DNA of 64,000 nt from Escherichia phage Esco_phi_B-01. The DNA lies in sequence record OP292222.1; one strand, written 5' to 3'. Shown here one piece after another: positions 21,955-58,412 of this stretch (positions are counted from its first letter, which is position 1; the number at the start of each line of letters is the position of its first letter). Both the position numbers and the translations under genes were made by a program. Below the pieces are notes generated by a model. It made no database searches, was not told where the DNA came from, and saw nothing but the letters and a program-made list of their open reading frames with translations.

Positions 21955-22455
21955 ATGAAAAAGTTAATTATCGCAATGAGTATGCTCCTATCAGGTTGCG
22001 CGGTCCAATACGGTGATGCAGTTTCGGCTGATGAAGTTGGTAAAGCTCGTATTGCAGCTGAACAGAAACAATTCGACGGCGAAATGAAATTCCGTGCCGG
22101 TTCTGGACTTGTGTATACCCGAGCTAATAATCAATGTGGTAATAACTGTGCAAAATATGCTCAAAGGGAAATCGAATTCCAACGTGAACAAGAGTCTAAG
22201 CGTGAAGAGGTACTAGCCAAACACCAGGCAGAAATGAAGCGCCAAGATGATTTGTACAAAAAGCAGAAACTGTATTCTATGTGTGTAAACCATATCAATC
22301 TACAGATTTCTGTCCATGAGGCTCGTTATTACGAAATGCTCGAAACCGAGAGCTTCGATAAAGCTCGTGATTATAAGAAACAAATCAACAAGCTTAAGAC
22401 CAAAGTGCCTGCTGCAGTAGAACAGTGCATGGAATACGGTAAAGATAAGATTTAA
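21955..22455 (+). CDS. predicted lipoprotein (signal peptide with lipobox LLSGC), coiled-coil rich
   Basis: N-terminal MKKLIIAMSMLLSGC. Confidence 0.6.
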   Translation: MKKLIIAMSMLLSGCAVQYGDAVSADEVGKARIAAEQKQFDGEMKFRAGSGLVYTRANNQCGNNCAKYAQREIEFQREQESKREEVLAKHQAEMKRQDDLYKKQKLYSMCVNHINLQISVHEARYYEMLETESFDKARDYKKQINKLKTKVPAAVEQCMEYGKDKI

Positions 22456-22515
22456 GCAATAGAAATTTATTAAAAATAGTGTATAATGTACCTACATTCA
22501 CTTGAGGAACAGATA

Positions 22516-24189
22516 ATGAAAAAGGTTGTTATTTTAGGCGCAGGTCTTGGCTCACGGTTGTATCCAATTACTAACGAAATCCCGAAGGTATTGGTTAACT
22601 ATAAACAACATACGGTATTAAAGCATTTGTATGATTTGTATAGTAACCAATCAGATGAAATTATTCTGGTTATTCACAGCAAATTTAACGACCTCGTTAA
22701 AGGCTATATTAAATCCATTAACATGATTACTGGTGATAAGCCTAAATTCACTATTCGTAACGTTGATGTTGCTAATGGTTCAGCTCATGCAATCGATTGC
22801 ATTGCCGAAGATATCATTGGCCATAATGTCCTGTTTAACTGGTGTGACATCATTCCTATCGGTCATAAAGTTGAATGGGGTAACGACTACTGTTATACCT
22901 ATGGAACTGACTGTCGTTTTACATTTGAAGAACCGTACTTACGTGAAATTGGTACTGGTGGCGGTGTAGTTGGTTTGTATCAGGTAGCCAATTGGACAGG
23001 TTTCGACCGTTCTAATTATGGTGAAGACCTTGCTGATAACCTGGATTCAATGGTCTATTTGACCGAACGTAAACTGGATTTTGTAGTTGATGTCGGTGAC
23101 AAATTGAAACTGGCTAAGGCCCATGAAGAATCTGAAATTAACCGTGAATTTAATAAATTAGAATTCACCGAGAATCTGGCTATTAAAGTACCAACTAACG
23201 AATTAGGTAAAGAAATTCAATCTAAAGAAATCAATTGGTATAATTCTATTGATTCTGAATTCGTTCCTAGCATTGTAGACTTTTCTCCAGGCGAATTCAT
23301 TAAAATGGAACGTATCTTTGGTCGAACCATGGCAGATGCCTACCGGTTTATGTCCAAAGAAACTAAAGTCCTCATGGTTTATAAGGTCATTAGTGCATTA
23401 CGTTCATTTGGTGGAACTATTGATAACCCGTCCGATGAGCAATGGTATTCCGATGTTAAGAAAGAAGTATTGGACAAGGTCCTTATTCGTAATGCTTCTA
23501 TTGCTGGATTGATTGAAGGCTTTGCTCCACAGGGCATTACCCATGTTAACGATTTCAAAGTAGGCGACCCTGAAAAACTTCTTCGCCATGCACTAGAAAT
23601 TCTGTCTGAACATAAAGAACCGTACCAACTTATTCATGGCGACCCGCACTACAGTAATATTATGCTGTCGGACGAAGGTGATATTAAAATCATCGACCCA
23701 CGTGGTTATTTCGGTAATAGTTCTAAAGGCCCTGCGATTTATGATGAAGCTAAGGTGCTTTATTCTATCGATGGCTATGACAAATTTAACTCAGACCCTC
23801 TATGGGGCGGATTAACTCGTAACGGAACTCGTGTATTCGTTGATATCGAAAAGATTATGCCTTTAGACGATATCCCTATGTGCACATTTAAGCACAAGCT
23901 CTGGATTGCTGTTATTTGGATGGCTCTGGCAGGTTACTTTAAGAATAACCCTCTGAAAGCTCTAGGTGCTTATTATAACGGTTTGTACCAACTGAGTGTG
24001 CTGCTGAAGCGGCATCCTCGTAAGCGTAAGCTTATTACGGGTGAATTTGTCGATGAAGTTCGTGACCCTATTACGGCTCAAATTATTACTCGTTGTCCTG
24101 ATAAGTGGGTTTTGCTTGACCAGGAAACTGGTGTAAAATATAAACCTACAGGTTCTACTGAACTCCACAAACAATGGAAGAAAATTTAA
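22516..24189 (+). CDS. bifunctional nucleotidyltransferase / protein-kinase-like phosphotransferase
   Basis: N-terminus ILGAGLGSRLYPIT...PKVLV (sugar-phosphate nucleotidyltransferase G-x-G-x-R signature); C-terminus HGDPHYSNIML ... IKIIDPRGYFG (Brenner HxDxxxxN + downstream D, APH/choline-kinase-like); start at ATG after SD gaggaa. Confidence 0.75.
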   Translation: MKKVVILGAGLGSRLYPITNEIPKVLVNYKQHTVLKHLYDLYSNQSDEIILVIHSKFNDLVKGYIKSINMITGDKPKFTIRNVDVANGSAHAIDCIAEDIIGHNVLFNWCDIIPIGHKVEWGNDYCYTYGTDCRFTFEEPYLREIGTGGGVVGLYQVANWTGFDRSNYGEDLADNLDSMVYLTERKLDFVVDVGDKLKLAKAHEESEINREFNKLEFTENLAIKVPTNELGKEIQSKEINWYNSIDSEFVPSIVDFSPGEFIKMERIFGRTMADAYRFMSKETKVLMVYKVISALRSFGGTIDNPSDEQWYSDVKKEVLDKVLIRNASIAGLIEGFAPQGITHVNDFKVGDPEKLLRHALEILSEHKEPYQLIHGDPHYSNIMLSDEGDIKIIDPRGYFGNSSKGPAIYDEAKVLYSIDGYDKFNSDPLWGGLTRNGTRVFVDIEKIMPLDDIPMCTFKHKLWIAVIWMALAGYFKNNPLKALGAYYNGLYQLSVLLKRHPRKRKLITGEFVDEVRDPITAQIITRCPDKWVLLDQETGVKYKPTGSTELHKQWKKI

Positions 24190-28065: not shown

Positions 28066-28387
28066 TTTATCTGATTTAGATAATTTTGTTAAAGATACTG
28101 AAGAGGGTCCTAGTGACCCTCGTTATTATGAGAAATCGTTAGATATAATCCGTAAGTCAATGGGTTCTGTTAAGCAGGAAATTATGCTTACATTACCTGA
28201 TGGCACTGCTCACATCGTTTATGTGATGAATATTGTTATTGAGAAAGATGGAAAAGTGTCGGTTGATTTCGGAACGCCTTCCGAAGACCGAAAAGAAGAG
28301 CTAGCGCTTCATGTAGAAAAATGTGTTACAATGCAAATACAAGAAGAACTGGATAAAATTAAATCTAAGAGGTGGTGGAAGTGGTAG
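28058..28387 (+). CDS. 40: gp40-like protein
   Basis: synteny uvsX-40-41; size. Confidence 0.7.
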   Translation: MTDLSDLDNFVKDTEEGPSDPRYYEKSLDIIRKSMGSVKQEIMLTLPDGTAHIVYVMNIVIEKDGKVSVDFGTPSEDRKEELALHVEKCVTMQIQEELDKIKSKRWWKW

Positions 28388-29811
28388 AAACTATTTTGGC
28401 TCAACTGCTAGGCAATAGTGATTATTTCACTAAGGTCTGGCCTTATATGAATGATTCTTATTTTGACCAGGGTCCGGCAAAGACCCTTTTCAAAGAAATC
28501 AAAAAACATGTCAATGAATATAATGCGGTGCCTTCTAAAAATGCTTTGAGTATTGCATTAGATAACAGCACCCTTTCAGAAGTTGAACATCAAGGAGCTA
28601 AAGAGCTTTTAAATTCTCTGAATGCAGGCCCTGAAGACCAAGAATGGTTGGTTAAAGAGACAGAGAAATATGTTCAGAAGGCAGCGATGTATAATGCCAC
28701 TTCAAAAATTATTGAAATTCAAACTAATGCCGACCTTCCGGTTGAGCAACAAAATAGAAAACTCCCAGGTATTGGTGCTATTCCAGATATCATGCGTGAT
28801 GCATTATCGATTTGTTTCGATTCTGAATTAGGCCATGACTGGATGGATGACTATGAAGAACGTTTTAAAAGTTATTCTGATAAAGCACGTAAGGTTCCAT
28901 TCCGTCTTAATATTCTGAATAAGATTACTAAGGGTGGCGCTGAGTTTGGTACTGAAAACGTATTGTTAGCAGGAACAAACGTAGGTAAGTCTCTGGGTCT
29001 GTGTTCATTGGCTGCTGATTACCTTCAATCCGGTTACGATGTTCTTTATATCTCCATGGAGATGGCAGAGGAAGTATGTGCTAAGCGTATCGATGCTAAC
29101 CTTCTAGATGTATCACTGGATGATATTGATGATGGTCACGTCTCATGGCCTGAATATAAAGCCAAGATGGATAAGTGGCGTTCAACTGCTACTTTAGGTC
29201 GTTTAAAGATTAAACAGTATCCTACTGGTGGTGCTAATGCCGATACATTCCGTGCATTATTAAACGAATACAAGCTCAAACAAAACTTTGTCCCACAGGT
29301 CGTTATCGTCGACTACTTGGCCATCTGTGCTTCATCCCGTACGAAAGTTTTCTCTGAAAACAGTTATGGATTGATTAAGATGGTTGCCGAAGAACTACGT
29401 GGACTTGCAGTAGAGAAGAAATTATTGTTGTGGACTGCAGCCCAGACTACTCGTGGCGCGAACGTTGCAGCCGAAATCGATATGGCTGATATCGCTGAAT
29501 CCTTTGGTATTGCACATACTGCAGACTTCATGTTAGGTGTGGTCGAGACAGAAGAGTTTGCTCAGATGGGTATGCAGATGGTTAAGCAGCTTAAATCCCG
29601 TTATGGTGATAAGAGCTACTACAACAAATTTAAGATTGGTGTTAAGAAAGGAAACCAGCGTTGGTATGAAGTTGAAGACGATTCTAACCCAGGCCCAGTG
29701 AACACCGTTCGTGAGGCTACAGGTGAAATGAATCGCCAAGCAGAGGTCAATCGTCAGTCGCGTGTTAATAGAAGCGATTTAGACGATTTAGCAGCATCTA
29801 TCAAATTTTAA
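28381..29811 (+). CDS. 41: replicative DNA helicase gp41 (DnaB-like)
   Basis: Walker A GTNVGKSLGL; similarity recalled to T4 gp41; GTG start (28372/28375/28381 all possible). Confidence 0.92.
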   Translation: MVETILAQLLGNSDYFTKVWPYMNDSYFDQGPAKTLFKEIKKHVNEYNAVPSKNALSIALDNSTLSEVEHQGAKELLNSLNAGPEDQEWLVKETEKYVQKAAMYNATSKIIEIQTNADLPVEQQNRKLPGIGAIPDIMRDALSICFDSELGHDWMDDYEERFKSYSDKARKVPFRLNILNKITKGGAEFGTENVLLAGTNVGKSLGLCSLAADYLQSGYDVLYISMEMAEEVCAKRIDANLLDVSLDDIDDGHVSWPEYKAKMDKWRSTATLGRLKIKQYPTGGANADTFRALLNEYKLKQNFVPQVVIVDYLAICASSRTKVFSENSYGLIKMVAEELRGLAVEKKLLLWTAAQTTRGANVAAEIDMADIAESFGIAHTADFMLGVVETEEFAQMGMQMVKQLKSRYGDKSYYNKFKIGVKKGNQRWYEVEDDSNPGPVNTVREATGEMNRQAEVNRQSRVNRSDLDDLAASIKF

Positions 29812-29832
29812 GGAGCTTCGGCTCCTTTTTTG
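29808..29832 (+). terminator. rho-independent terminator (ggagc-ttcg-gctcc + T7)
   Basis: stem-loop + T-run. Confidence 0.75.
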
Positions 29833-30857: not shown

Positions 30858-31151
30858 ATGAAAAAGTTATTAATCGCAGCAATCCTTACAGTAGCATCAT
30901 GTGGTACAGCTCCAGTTACGGCTGGATTGGATAAAGACCTTTGTGAATGGTCTATGACCGCAGACCAAGAATCAGTTGAACATCAGATTTACGCTGATAT
31001 CATGAATATCACTAAACGTGACCGTCCTGATATGGTTAAAGAAGTATCTGACCAATTGGCTTCTAGCGGTGTTATGCAGTATAACTATGTTCTGTACTGT
31101 GATGCTAATTTCGATAACAAAAATATTGTTAAAGAGGTGATAGGTGAATAA
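30858..31151 (+). CDS. predicted lipoprotein (lipobox VASC)
   Basis: N-terminal MKKLLIAAILTVASCG. Confidence 0.55.
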   Translation: MKKLLIAAILTVASCGTAPVTAGLDKDLCEWSMTADQESVEHQIYADIMNITKRDRPDMVKEVSDQLASSGVMQYNYVLYCDANFDNKNIVKEVIGE

Positions 31152-31584
31152 GATTAACAGAAATTTGGTTATCAAAAAGCTCCGTTGCAAAAATCCAAAT
31201 GCACAAGCATACAGGATGTTTTGGAGCGACGACCACCAGTACCTGGGTTATTTTCTTGTTGATAGTGATGATAGAATTACAATGGCCCATAAACTTCTTA
31301 ACAGAGAATTAAACCATTGGCAAGAACTTATTGCGGTAAGGTCTAAATTATTTTCATGTAATGCAATGCATCAATTGGTTTATTTTTTCGCTGAAGGTAT
31401 TCCTGACAAGGTTGAGTTTGATGGATTCGAATTTAAAGATATCCACCCGGACAACGAATTGAACGACCGCGTTAATATGGATATCCCTAGCAAGTATATC
31501 AAAAACAGTCTGTTGAAAATTCTGGAAGCTCCGGTTTATTCAATTGACGACCAGATTTTTAATGCCTTTATGAACCGAGGTTAA
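31144..31584 (+). CDS. hypothetical protein (146 aa)
   Basis: ORF. Confidence 0.5.
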   Translation: MNKINRNLVIKKLRCKNPNAQAYRMFWSDDHQYLGYFLVDSDDRITMAHKLLNRELNHWQELIAVRSKLFSCNAMHQLVYFFAEGIPDKVEFDGFEFKDIHPDNELNDRVNMDIPSKYIKNSLLKILEAPVYSIDDQIFNAFMNRG

Positions 31585-31585
31585 T

Positions 31586-31777
31586 ATGACTGCAATGTGT
31601 ACGGGCTCTAAGATTTCTGTATTCGAACTGTTCGAAGAATATGAAATCGTATCAAAAGACCAAGAAGCTATCCATATTATTGCCGGTGATGGCGTAACTT
31701 GGATTATCCCACTTTACCACGAAGATACATATGAAGTCACTGATGCAAATGGTGATAAAGCTATTTTCGTAATATAA
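31586..31777 (+). CDS. hypothetical protein (63 aa)
   Basis: ORF. Confidence 0.45.
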   Translation: MTAMCTGSKISVFELFEEYEIVSKDQEAIHIIAGDGVTWIIPLYHEDTYEVTDANGDKAIFVI

Positions 31778-31780
31778 ATA
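31773..31780 (+). promoter_or_regulatory. T4-type late promoter TATAAATA
   Basis: exact octamer; unusually close (13 nt) to downstream ATG. Confidence 0.45.
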
Positions 31781-31793
31781 AGGCCAGGAGCCT

Positions 31794-31955
31794 ATGAAAT
31801 CTTTTAAAGAAGTTATGAACGAAGATATGGTCGCAGGCGATGCTGGTGGAAATCCATCTAATATTGCCTCCGGAACTACCTCAGGCGCAGTCGTCAACAA
31901 AGGGCCTGAACAAATCCCATCTAAAAAGCGTAAAGAAAAATCCGAAAACGAATGA
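31794..31955 (+). CDS. small late protein with capsid-targeting-sequence-like N-terminus (MKSFKEVMNE)
   Basis: resembles CTS MKTYQEFIAE of T4 internal proteins; SD aggag; late promoter upstream. Confidence 0.45.
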   Translation: MKSFKEVMNEDMVAGDAGGNPSNIASGTTSGAVVNKGPEQIPSKKRKEKSENE

Positions 31956-31993
31956 TATAATGGCTCTATTAATTTAGAGCCCAAGGAAAAATA

Positions 31994-33022
31994 ATGTCAT
32001 ATGTCGATAGAGAATTTGCTGTACGTGCCTTGAATTACCAACCTAAATTCAGACAAGTAACTGGTAGTGATTTTAAATTAAACTGTCGTTGTCGTGTATG
32101 CGGCGACTCCCAAAAGGATGAGAACAAAGCTCGATTCTGGGCCTATCCAGCCAATGACGGCTCTGTAATGCTACACTGTTTTAACTGTGATTATTCGGCA
32201 GGAATTAAGAAGTACCTATACGAATATGAGCCTGATTTATATCGCGAATATATTCTTGAGAAACATAAAGAGCAATCGTTCGGGAGACAAGCTGCGCCTA
32301 AGGTGGAGATATCTGAAAAAATTAAAGCTAAGATGCCTGTCATTGAAAAGCTTAATTTCTGTGAACGATTAGATAGAATGCCGAAAGACCATCCTATTAT
32401 TAAGTATGTAACTCTGCGGTGCATTCCTGAAAATAAATGGAATCGGTTATGGTTTACTAAAGAATGGCCTGCATTGGTGAATTCTGTTAATCCAGGGACA
32501 TATTCCAAAGAAATGCCTGAACCACGTTTGGTTATTCCAATTTTCAATAAGAATAAACAAATTGAAAGTTTTCAGGGCCGAGCCTTACGTAAAGATGCTC
32601 CACAAAAATATATTACAATAAAAGCTCATGACCAAGCTACAAAAATATATGGAATGGATACAGTTGACGAACGTCAATTGGTGTGGGTAATGGAAGGTCC
32701 TATTGATTCATTATTCGTACCTAATGCAATAGCAATTACTGGTGGGTCGTTGGACTTGGCTATGGTTCCATGTAAAGAAACTCGTGCCTGGGTAATGGAC
32801 AATGAACCCCGTCATCCTGACACAATTAAGCGTATGCAACGATTAGTTGATGCCGGCGAAAGGGTCCTATTCTGGGACAAGGCCCCATGGCCTTCTAAAG
32901 ATATAAATGATATGGTTATGAAAGATAAAGCTGATATAAATGATGTATTGGCATATATGAAAGCTAATATAGCCCAAGGGTTAATGGCAAAAATGAGGCT
33001 TTCAAAATATTCTAAAATTTAG
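31994..33022 (+). CDS. 61: DNA primase gp61
   Basis: N-terminal zinc ribbon (CRCRVCGDS ... CFNCDY), TOPRIM-like core; synteny. Confidence 0.88.
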   Translation: MSYVDREFAVRALNYQPKFRQVTGSDFKLNCRCRVCGDSQKDENKARFWAYPANDGSVMLHCFNCDYSAGIKKYLYEYEPDLYREYILEKHKEQSFGRQAAPKVEISEKIKAKMPVIEKLNFCERLDRMPKDHPIIKYVTLRCIPENKWNRLWFTKEWPALVNSVNPGTYSKEMPEPRLVIPIFNKNKQIESFQGRALRKDAPQKYITIKAHDQATKIYGMDTVDERQLVWVMEGPIDSLFVPNAIAITGGSLDLAMVPCKETRAWVMDNEPRHPDTIKRMQRLVDAGERVLFWDKAPWPSKDINDMVMKDKADINDVLAYMKANIAQGLMAKMRLSKYSKI

Positions 33023-33219
33023 ACAGGAACTCCGCTAAAGAATCCAATTATGCTTAATACGTGTTCCATTGTAACCGCTGGTAAAATTACCCCTTGGCTA
33101 GCGGCTACAGGAACTACTAAAAGATTCCAAAGGAATACGTCTAGCGCAAGAAAACCTAACATCATTTTCTTGTCTTTCTTTTCAGCCAATTTCCAGATTT
33201 GGTAAAAAATACTACCCAT
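33019..33219 (-). CDS. small membrane protein (66 aa) on opposite strand
   Basis: minus-strand ORF with strong SD aggagga 5 nt upstream of ATG; hydrophobic. Confidence 0.5.
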   Translation of the reverse strand: MGSIFYQIWKLAEKKDKKMMLGFLALDVFLWNLLVVPVAASQGVILPAVTMEHVLSIIGFFSGVPV

Positions 33220-33837: not shown

Positions 33838-33845
33838 TATAAATA
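33838..33845 (+). promoter_or_regulatory. T4-type late promoter TATAAATA upstream of soc
   Basis: exact octamer about 30 nt upstream of soc ATG. Confidence 0.6.
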
Positions 33846-33876: not shown

Positions 33877-34110
33877 ATGGGTGGTTTCGTTAATATCAAA
33901 ACCTTTACGCATCCAGCTGGTGAAGGTAAAGAAGTTAAAGGTACTGAGGTTTCAGTTCCGTTTGAAATCTATTCAAATGAGCATCGTATTGCCAATGCTC
34001 ATTATCAGACTTTCCCTTCGGCCGTTGCAGCCTATACTACTGTAGTGACTGATGCAGCCGATTGGCGAACTAAGAACGCGGCGATGTTTACGCCTACCGA
34101 TATTGTTTAA
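33877..34110 (+). CDS. soc: small outer capsid protein Soc
   Basis: similarity recalled to T4 Soc (VNIKTF, AHYQTFPS..AAY). Confidence 0.85.
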   Translation: MGGFVNIKTFTHPAGEGKEVKGTEVSVPFEIYSNEHRIANAHYQTFPSAVAAYTTVVTDAADWRTKNAAMFTPTDIV

Positions 34111-34114
34111 TTAT

Positions 34115-34139
34115 AAGGAACCTTCGGGTTCCTTTTTTC
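34115..34139 (+). terminator. rho-independent terminator (aggaacc-ttcg-ggttcct + T6)
   Basis: stem-loop + T-run. Confidence 0.75.
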
Positions 34140-57736: not shown

Positions 57737-58386
57737 CGAGTTCGACCTAATGTCCTCCCGGCCTGACCACACATAGACGAAAGTCTAGGAAATCCTAAAT
57801 CCGGTTTGGTATCGTACCAATATAATGATATCGAGCCGGCATAGATGTTATCCAAATTAAAAAACGGGCATGAAAACATATACGTGAATTGGGTTTTCTT
57901 CTTTGTAGGAAGGAACACAGTTTCTGTACTTGATTCAAAATAGTTTCCGTTAACTCCCGCCATATATTCTACTGACGTTTTGTCAATTGGAAACCCTCCC
58001 GTATTTTTTGCGTCTACCGTTTCCGGTAATTTACCCTCATAAGCAACCATATCCACAAAATAATTCATGTTGGTTGGTCTAAAAGAATATATTGCTGTGA
58101 AGTCTGCGCCTGAAGAAGAATGCACTATTCGGAGCTGCTCGATAGCCGCAATTTTAAATCTATTGTCCTGGTCTTGTCTAATCATTTCAGTATAAGAGGC
58201 ATAAGTTGTCTCTTTATAAAAGTTTAGAATATACTCGCCTTTATACCAAACTAATGCCATAAAGAACAATAATATTACGACTAGGACCCGGGAAAAAACT
58301 ACTTTCCCGGAAGAAGTATCTTTAAAAATTCTATCAAGAAGTCCAAAAAGTAGGTCTGATAATGAAAATCCTACTTTTGGTTCCAT
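57733..58386 (-). CDS. t: holin (T-type)
   Basis: similarity recalled to T4 holin t (LLFGLLDRIFKD, VVILLFFMA.VWY, YSFRP.N.NYFVD..AYEGKLP); converges on asiA. Confidence 0.9.
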   Translation of the reverse strand: MEPKVGFSLSDLLFGLLDRIFKDTSSGKVVFSRVLVVILLFFMALVWYKGEYILNFYKETTYASYTEMIRQDQDNRFKIAAIEQLRIVHSSSGADFTAIYSFRPTNMNYFVDMVAYEGKLPETVDAKNTGGFPIDKTSVEYMAGVNGNYFESSTETVFLPTKKKTQFTYMFSCPFFNLDNIYAGSISLYWYDTKPDLGFPRLSSMCGQAGRTLGRTR

Positions 58387-58404: not shown

Positions 58405-58412
58405 TATTTATA
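58405..58412 (-). promoter_or_regulatory. T4-type late promoter TATAAATA (minus strand) upstream of holin gene
   Basis: octamer on minus strand about 20 nt upstream of start, followed by SD aaggag. Confidence 0.5.

Follow-up and report, generated by a model that had tools for sequence, protein, structure and literature searches.

Head assembly in bacteriophage T4 is a textbook system, and its parts list is thought to be complete. The internal proteins IPI, IPII and IPIII are packaged in the head and injected, and carry an N-terminal capsid targeting sequence, or CTS (Mullaney & Black 1996, reviewed in PMC9026906). The first ten residues of IPIII suffice for packaging, also of foreign proteins, with targeting resting mainly on positions 4 and 7 and processing on positions 8 and 10 (PMC9026906). 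The prohead protease gp21 cuts after L/I-x-E (PMC9026906, PMC12991175). In the T4 genome IPII and IPIII start MKTYQEFIAE|A and IPI starts MKTFKEFTSTTTPVSTITE|A, where the bar marks the cut. The payloads of these proteins are hypervariable and host-specific (PMC3012670). The major capsid protein gp23 is matured by a cut at E65|A66, and behind this cut lies the N-fist (residues 66-91; PMC7136217), a 25-residue structure that contacts four subunits and is part of the Soc binding site (PMC7136217, PMC9958956). Before expansion, gp23 residues 66-105 are disordered, lie inside the shell and probably touch the scaffolding core, and head-length mutations map to this region (PMC9546572). This study was concerned with an open reading frame (ORF) of 53 codons plus stop at 31794-31955 on the plus strand of a 64,000-nucleotide stretch of Escherichia phage Esco_phi_B-01 (OP292222.1), the whole of which is called the window. 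By sequence this ORF is gene 61.1 of T4 in its Dhakavirus version, an ortholog and an ordinary member of a known, uncharacterised family. Our analysis suggests that this family is a stand-alone, diverged copy of gp23 around the maturation cut, consisting of the pre-cut segment, a hydrophobic-x-Glu site and the 25-residue N-fist, with a CTS on many of its members.

The assignment to gene 61.1 draws on sequence, annotation and position. The source of the window is a T4-like phage, a Dhakavirus of the JS10/JS98 type, and window positions 31000-33100 share 98% identity with Escherichia phage JS10 and 97% with JS98. Both annotations call the ORF 61.1, and its position in JS10 is identical. The ORF matches phrog_1823 (E = 5.1e-32; its residues 1-53 align with positions 1-53 of the 54 in the profile), and its translation, MKSFKEVMNEDMVAGDAGGNPSNIASGTTSGAVVNKGPEQIPSKKRKEKSENE (53 residues), is 74% identical to T4 gp61.1 (NP_049649, 54 residues, MKTFKEFIKEDMVAGDSGGNPENISIGTTSGAVVNKGPEQIPKKKKEESKEKEE). 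The two proteins share a decapeptide ending in Glu, a (D)MVAGD..GP core and a Lys-rich tail. Its place is in the early/replication region, with helicase gene 41 (28372-29811) on one side and primase gene 61 (31994-33022) on the other; the ORF is the next gene upstream of gene 61 and on the same strand, as in JS10 and T4. Upstream of it are dmd, 61.4 and spackle orthologues together with a 61.2-like and a 63-aa ORF. Homologues found by tblastn in 1440 phage records come from phages of Escherichia, Klebsiella, Shigella, Aeromonas, Acinetobacter, Vibrio and other hosts. The ratio of nonsynonymous to synonymous substitution rates (dN/dS) against relatives is 0.04-0.28, with synonymous sites saturated in the comparison with T4, and 61.1 is therefore a real protein-coding gene under purifying selection. 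Pfam and NCBIfam searches of the ORF gave no matches. The original prediction had called the peptide novel, which does not hold: since 2006 the gene has figured among those T4-like ORFs that are conserved universally and have no function assigned (Nolan et al., PMC1524935). A full-text literature search for 'gp61.1' returned genome tables only, and the gene is not mentioned in Sullivan 2010.

Several methods relate the ORF product to gp23. BLASTP aligned residues 2-46 with residues 55-99 of JS10 gp23 (38% identity, E = 1e-8). A profile of the 61.1 family, compared with all PDB sequences, matched T4 gp23 as its sole protein (residues 59-94, E = 9.5e-7), pairing gp23 FGSFLTE|AEIGGDHGYNATNIAAGQTSGAVTQIGP with the family consensus YKEFLKLNE|DMVAGDAGGNPENIASGTTSGAVVNKGPE. 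The hhalign comparison with gp23 residues 53-101 gave a probability of 97% (E = 7e-11), and a hidden Markov model (HMM) of the long form of the family, described below, also matched gp23 among the T4 ORFs (E = 8.5e-9). The alignment crosses the gp23 maturation cut in register. Residues 1-10 of 61.1 align with gp23 56-65 (..AFGSFLTE), directly before the cut, so that E10|D11 stands at the position homologous to E65|A66, with LTE|A in gp23 and MNE|D in the window. Residues 11-38 (DMVAGDAGGNPSNIASGTTSGAVVNKGP; 31824-31907, plus strand) are identified by BLASTP, PDB profile and hhalign as the N-fist homologue, corresponding to gp23 66-93. The alignments place residues 39-53 (EQIPSKKRKEKSENE; 31908-31952, plus strand) in a mixed-charge, Lys-rich tail, and a basic tail is kept across the family while its sequence is not. 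The predicted mature peptide has 43 residues, a mass of 4.36 kDa and an isoelectric point of 6.4. These ~43 residues had originally been described as Gly/Ser-rich with a Lys-rich tail; that composition is present, but the segment is homologous to the gp23 N-fist, with the cuts in register, and is no low-complexity filler.

The likeness extends from the end of the gp23 propeptide over the cut site and the N-fist into the first part of the N-arm. What 61.1 lacks is the HK97-fold body of gp23 (A, P and I domains): it has 53 residues and an alignment confined to gp23 53-101, and the homologous stretch of 61.1 alone is predicted to be disordered. The names 'major capsid protein' and 'major capsid domain-containing protein' given to family members in GenBank and UniRef are explained by the gp23 homology, but overstate the relationship because 61.1 is without that body. 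In the literature searched, the reading of 61.1 as a gp23 module with a CTS was not found, and the gp23 likeness is visible only in these automatic names. Approximately 14-18 of 30 core residues are identical to gp23 of the same phage. A test for co-variation between the 61.1 core and the N-fist of its own gp23 had low power, with the gp23 N-fist being almost invariant. The highest core identity among 15 genome pairs (18/30) was observed in one IMG/VR contig (2974736276; L052/L082), in which gp23 GGDSGYNADNIAAG and 61.1 AGDSGYNAQNISSG both carry 'DSGYNA'. This may be gene conversion between gene 23 and 61.1 or a retained ancestral state. A connection with Gol/Lit was considered and rejected: the Gol peptide of gp23, which we take to lie at approximately residues 93-122, would begin just beyond the end of the 61.1 homology.

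The first ten residues of the window product, MKSFKEVMNE (31794-31823, plus strand), are a predicted CTS-like propeptide ending Met-Asn-Glu, with a predicted gp21 cut after Glu10. Like the internal proteins, 61.1 has a decapeptide of the form M-K-[TS]-[FY]-x-E-[FV]-hydrophobic-x-E and a gp21-type site followed by a small non-essential payload. Unlike them, it lies outside the internal-protein loci, its payload is ultra-conserved and gp23-homologous rather than hypervariable, the CTS is missing from many of its relatives (Marfa-type and long forms), and positions 7 and 8 are atypical in the window. Packaging and injection, known for the internal proteins, would be predictions for 61.1. The resemblance to MKTYQEFIAE noted in the original prediction is one of motif class; it is modest in the window, with 4/10 residues identical to T4 IPII/IPIII and 5/10 to JS10 ipIII, and strong in orthologues from T4, T6-type phages and one further locus (L012), in which CTS identity is 7-9/10. 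For example, T4 gp61.1 starts MKTFKEFIKE|D, identical to IPII/III in 7/10 residues and nearer than the window product to the CTS consensus (7/10 versus 4/10), and T4 gp61.1 and IPI share their first 7 residues and first 22 nt exactly. T6-type 61.1 starts MKTYKEFIKE, matching T4 IPII/III in 8/10 residues and the JS10 internal proteins in 9/10. In the window decapeptide, Phe4 (as in IPI; IPIII has Tyr4) and Glu10 are kept. The hydrophobic-x-Glu site that had been pointed out at its end is present and invariant across the family: [LIVMF]-x-E directly precedes the (D/E)MVAGD core in 179/179 sequences, with mostly Leu or Ile at the first position and free variation in the middle. Thus, it is in T-even-like lineages of the family that the CTS reading is strong; for the window sequence it is weaker. 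More speculatively, the gp23 alignment suggests that the internal-protein CTS may itself be derived from, or convergent on, the gp23 pre-cut segment.

A nearly complete JS10-type genome (171.5 kb) was scanned for ORFs beginning [MVL]K[TS][FY]x[ED][FV]. Only 7 were found, namely five in two internal-protein loci (two of them unannotated), 61.1 and uvsW.1. The JS10 internal-protein genes lie at 9-11 kb and ~22 kb of locus L063, and 61.1, which stands between genes 41 and 61, is in neither of these variable loci, whose neighbours are e/denV or 57B. The two unannotated ORFs are at L063 ~22000-22580 on the minus strand (JS10 ~70.5-71.1 kb, with trna.4 and 57B on either side), at the place of ipI in T4. 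One encodes 97 residues starting MKTYQEFIKE|S and the other 69 residues with a GTG start, (V)KSYKEFLTE|A, and they are probably internal-protein genes absent from the deposited annotation. The closest match to the window decapeptide (8/10) is the start of JS10 uvsW.1, MKSFKEVIYE|A (EpJS10_0181, L003 15215-15442). T4 uvsW.1 starts MLLEFKQFLYE|A, so that uvsW.1 is another universally conserved ORF without a function whose N-terminus resembles a CTS and a cut site. Recent gene conversion between 61.1 and uvsW.1 in JS10 was considered and rejected, as synonymous positions differ.

The 61.1 family has short and long forms. Short forms of 51-64 residues are found in T4, Dhakaviruses, several Klebsiella, Enterobacter and Pectobacterium phages and an Aeromonas phage (L053). 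Long forms of 123-166 residues occur in RB69-like, S16-like, KVP40, Acinetobacter and other phages (phrog_2086 and, more widely, phrog_18642). They occupy the same locus and have a helical N-terminal domain (N-domain) of ~100 residues followed by the same module (..KEIFEALPLFE|DMVAGDSGG..), so that their C-terminal 50 residues equal the whole window ORF, which has the CTS-like decapeptide in place of that domain. Three features are universal in the family, namely [LIVMF]-x-E before the core, the core itself, (D/E)MVAGD..I..G.T.G....GP, and the basic tail; the CTS is not. The body of the protein hardly varies between Escherichia phages and those of Acinetobacter and Aeromonas. Five long forms searched against Pfam and NCBIfam gave no matches. 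An AlphaFold2 model of the long form had a predicted local distance difference test score (pLDDT) of 64 overall, with ~80-87 in the N-domain and below 50 in the gp23-like part, which was disordered. Foldseek found nothing for this model in the PDB (best E = 3), and in BFVD uncharacterised homologues only. A search of 1.84 billion representative proteins with the N-domain returned 1858 clusters at E <= 1e-3, and the N-domain family falls in phrog_2086 and phrog_18642. Relatedness of the N-domain to the gp23 propeptide (residues 1-52) was also considered and rejected, since the HMM and hhalign alignments begin at gp23 ~53. Distant N-domain relatives (P0184, P0186, P0199, P0204 and one in pelagiphage HTVC008M) have 270-300 residues, some with a degenerate N-fist-like stretch and a 'MVRR' resembling the gp23 N-arm. 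They also have a further conserved C-terminal domain (..F.VP...F.RF..GR.K.ERW.K.L.L.D..Q..), and this layout may be the ancestral architecture of the family.

The gene also has a candidate late promoter. An exact TATAAATA octamer, the motif of T4-type late promoters (gp55), is present at 31773-31780 on the plus strand, as originally noted, and ends 13 nt before the ATG at 31794. A Shine-Dalgarno sequence read at 31786-31790 (AGGAG, plus strand) lies 3 nt before the ATG. Counted from the transcription start, the late motif spans -13 to -6 (PMC1524935), and a late mRNA would therefore start at ~31786, at or next to the AGGAG, with a leader of ~8 nt beginning at the Shine-Dalgarno sequence. Both strands of the window hold 3 octamers compared with 7.5 +/- 2.7 expected from shuffled sequence, and all three face a start codon 13-31 nt downstream on their own strand. 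The other two precede soc (octamer at 33838, ATG at 33877) and, on the minus strand, holin gene t (octamer at 58405, ATG at 58386), a 217-aa ORF identified by its sequence and N-terminal membrane segment. Both soc and t are late genes in T4. The depletion of the octamer, with every copy in promoter position, would fit a situation in which stray late promoters are selected against in the early region.

The promoter position was also surveyed in IMG/VR, in 53 distinct related loci that together make up 325 kb. These contain 36 plus-strand octamers, 16 of which are 13-24 nt upstream of the 61.1 start. The exact octamer is thus found there in 16/53 loci, in six flanking contexts and with all four bases represented just 5' of it. 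The short distance to the ATG recurs across lineages and is therefore not peculiar to the window phage. The heptamer ATAAATA is at the same position in 27/53 loci, long-form loci included, and the first T of the late motif has been reported to be poorly conserved in other T4-like phages (PMC1524935). Compared with T4, in which the 61.1 start overlaps the 61.2 stop (TAATATG) and no TATAAATA lies upstream, the window phage has the extra 63-aa ORF and the octamer at this place. The octamer is probably a genuine late promoter in this lineage.

On the simplest reading of the CTS, the homology and the family data, 61.1 shows the head-assembly machinery the recognition module of gp23, and would therefore be a gp21 substrate that is directed to the prohead core and cleaved behind Glu10. 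We assign this reading a probability of roughly 0.45. The protein would be made early by read-through and, in the window phage, also late from its own promoter. It would join the prohead scaffolding core through its N-terminal decapeptide, a CTS sequence in T-even-like lineages, and the N-fist-like segment might aid core entry; in uncleaved gp23 that segment faces the core. Since gp23 66-105 lies inside the shell and probably contacts the core, a mimic of it would have a plausible docking partner there. gp21 would then cut after Glu10 (MNE|D), the position aligned with gp23 E65|A66, and release a 43-residue peptide starting where mature gp23* starts. The homology, the register of the cut, the invariance of the motif, the CTS identity in orthologues and the promoter statistics are results of the analysis, while incorporation into the prohead, cleavage and any later action of the peptide are inferred. 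The original prediction had suggested an anti-restriction role like that of IPI, for which we found no support. Internal-protein payloads are hypervariable, as noted above, whereas the 61.1 core is near-invariant across hosts, which argues that the partner of the peptide is phage-encoded and not host-encoded. We would guess that the peptide has an accessory part in head maturation, at places where the gp23 N-terminus is recognised, rather than a host-specific anti-restriction role. A more specific version is speculative and distinctly unlikely as it stands: 61.1 would be a head-maturation component, a free 'spare N-fist' brought in by the CTS or the N-domain and freed by gp21 as gp23 is cut, acting where N-fists dock or are missing (interfaces by the gp24 vertices, or the portal), or else a decoy substrate shielding gp21 from host protease sensors. 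The idea of a Soc chaperone was weakened by the universal presence of 61.1, as the T4 record puts soc in T4 and a few relatives.

A number of observations weigh against 61.1 as a gp21 substrate in the prohead. At two positions on which targeting and processing reportedly depend (PMC9026906), the window decapeptide has Val7 instead of the Phe of IPIII and IPI, and Met8 instead of the Ile of IPIII, so that positions 8-10 read M-N-E, with the Glu present and Met rather than Leu or Ile as the hydrophobic residue. Behind the predicted cut, proteins of the 61.1 family usually have Asp or Glu, as opposed to Ala or Ser at the gp23 and internal-protein cuts examined. Most genera have the long form, with a folded domain of ~100 residues in place of the CTS. 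In Klebsiella phage Marfa the internal proteins all start MKTYKEFI[AT]E|A, but 61.1 starts MTLLDQYKQSLSE|MVAGD. JS10 uvsW.1, not known as a head protein, has the 'MKSFKEV' start as well. T4 has no octamer between gene 40 and gene 56, and the late transcript in the window phage would have a leader of only ~8 nt. In a T4 time course the 61.1 protein is given as 'NA' (not quantified; PMC9697503). In addition, the available part of a T4 head mass-spectrometry study (13 gp21 cuts, 9 head proteins) does not mention 61.1. Marfa also led to rejection of the idea that, as a general rule, the 61.1 N-terminus co-varies with the internal-protein CTS of its own phage; it likewise fails in JS10, where the internal proteins have MKTYxEFIxE and 61.1 has MKSFKEVMNE.

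The expression and essentiality data for T4 can be set beside those for the internal proteins. In the same time course the 61.1 RNA is classed as 'early', and ipI, ipII and ipIII as 'early RNA' and 'late protein' (PMC9697503). Their mRNAs are early like that of 61.1, and early RNA timing is therefore no argument against 61.1 in the head. In the HIDEN-SEQ transposon mapping T4 61.1 is non-essential, with 13/13 sites disrupted, and internal proteins are likewise non-essential. The peptide had been expected in virions, and it is not reported in the available portions of the T4 proteome and head mass-spectrometry literature examined. The sole long tryptic peptide of cleaved 61.1 would be semi-tryptic, so a standard search could miss it.

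Three other explanations were weighed, one for the octamer and two for the protein. The octamer might be a by-product of the end of the upstream ORF (..ATA TAA) and an A/T-rich spacer, with expression by early or middle read-through only, as in T4. It does overlap the TAA stop (31775-31777) of the 63-aa ORF, T4 does without such a promoter, and 13 nt to the ATG is short compared with ~25-30 nt at T4 genes 22, 24, alt and soc. However, a by-product would not be expected to be depleted in the window with its other two copies before genes that are late in T4, to be kept in six flanking contexts with any of four bases just 5', or to account for 16 of 36 plus-strand octamers in 325 kb by standing within 24 nt of the 61.1 start. 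We therefore regard this explanation as doubtful, though still a serious one. The same promoter, found before 61.1 in many lineages, also counts against a function in replication. According to that explanation 61.1 works with the primase and helicase, the ~100-aa N-domain is the functional part, and short forms are remnants with a flexible, charged, gp23-like tail. The place immediately upstream of gene 61 is kept from T4 to KVP40, the distant homologue in HTVC008M (L100 5001-6294) lies ~3 kb upstream of a primase gene, the N-domain family is very large, with its 1858 clusters, and T4 61.1 RNA is early. Adjacency is weak evidence, however, as T4-like gene order is broadly conserved. The short forms have lost the N-domain yet keep the gp23-like core under strong purifying selection, which makes the core the conserved functional unit, and gp23 homology with the cut in register has no replication rationale. 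A replication accessory appears highly unlikely to us.

The other explanation for the protein places it in the cytoplasm. 61.1 would never enter the prohead and would be a soluble mimic of the gp23 N-terminus that, as a competing substrate or an inhibitor, damps stray gp21 activity, or else occupies a host factor sensing new gp23. The copied module is exactly the gp21 recognition region of gp23, and T4 61.1 mRNA is early, before gp23 is made. Hosts are known to sense both gp21 activity and gp23: CdnG, an enzyme of CBASS (defence against phages by signalling with cyclic oligonucleotides), is activated by a cut in an LPE loop, by which gp21 activity is sensed (PMC12991175), and the chaperone CmdC of CmdTAC binds gp23 (PMC11618068). 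Marfa-type and long forms, which are without the CTS and have the cut motif and core, would also suit such a decoy. On the other hand, a decoy for host sensors should itself vary with the host, and the core is near-invariant across host genera. The CTS identity in T-even lineages would also go unexplained. The HIDEN-SEQ main text is silent on 61.1, and one conditional comparison there was non-significant (adjusted p = 1.0). A purely cytoplasmic decoy is for these reasons unlikely, and the gp21 substrate targeted to the prohead core is preferred.

Gene 61.1 is one of few ORFs conserved in all T4-like phages, and its function has been unassigned for more than 20 years. Reading it as a gp23 module that in T-even lineages carries a CTS gives a concrete and cheaply testable hypothesis. 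The reading bears on client recognition by the scaffolding core and gp21, which reviews call unresolved, and on the origin of the CTS used for packaging foreign proteins into T4 heads. It is a hypothesis about a long-unassigned core gene of a model phage and not a new kind of system. If the head-maturation hypothesis is wrong, 61.1 is an ordinary conserved hypothetical gene, with nothing unusual at the site.

Several further features were seen around the gene. An antisense ORF at 31652-31984 (110 aa) was judged spurious. An RNA hairpin, GGCUCUA-UUAAUU-UAGAGCC (31962-31981, plus strand), lies between the 61.1 stop and the ribosome-binding site of gene 61. The fold of 31945-32000 has an energy of -13.2 kcal/mol (z = -4.2), and 0/200 shuffles were as stable. 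The hairpin is not an intrinsic terminator because it is not followed by a U-run; it could be a processing or stability element, or serve translational control of the primase gene. Terminator calling found none in the interval from 61.1 to gene 61; the primase gene could therefore be served by a late transcript too. Strong intrinsic-terminator-like hairpins with U-runs are present on the plus strand at 29810-29827, after gene 41, and at 34115-34134, after soc. Between them lies a segment that opens with the first ORF behind gene 41 (29884) and includes dmd, 61.4, sp, 61.1, 61, 56 and soc. Lastly, the gap between genes 61 and 56, where T4 has dam, holds a 66-aa ORF (33019-33219, minus strand) with a hydrophobic C-terminal half. 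Its equivalent in phage dhabil is annotated as 'dCTP pyrophosphatase', which looks like a mis-annotation.

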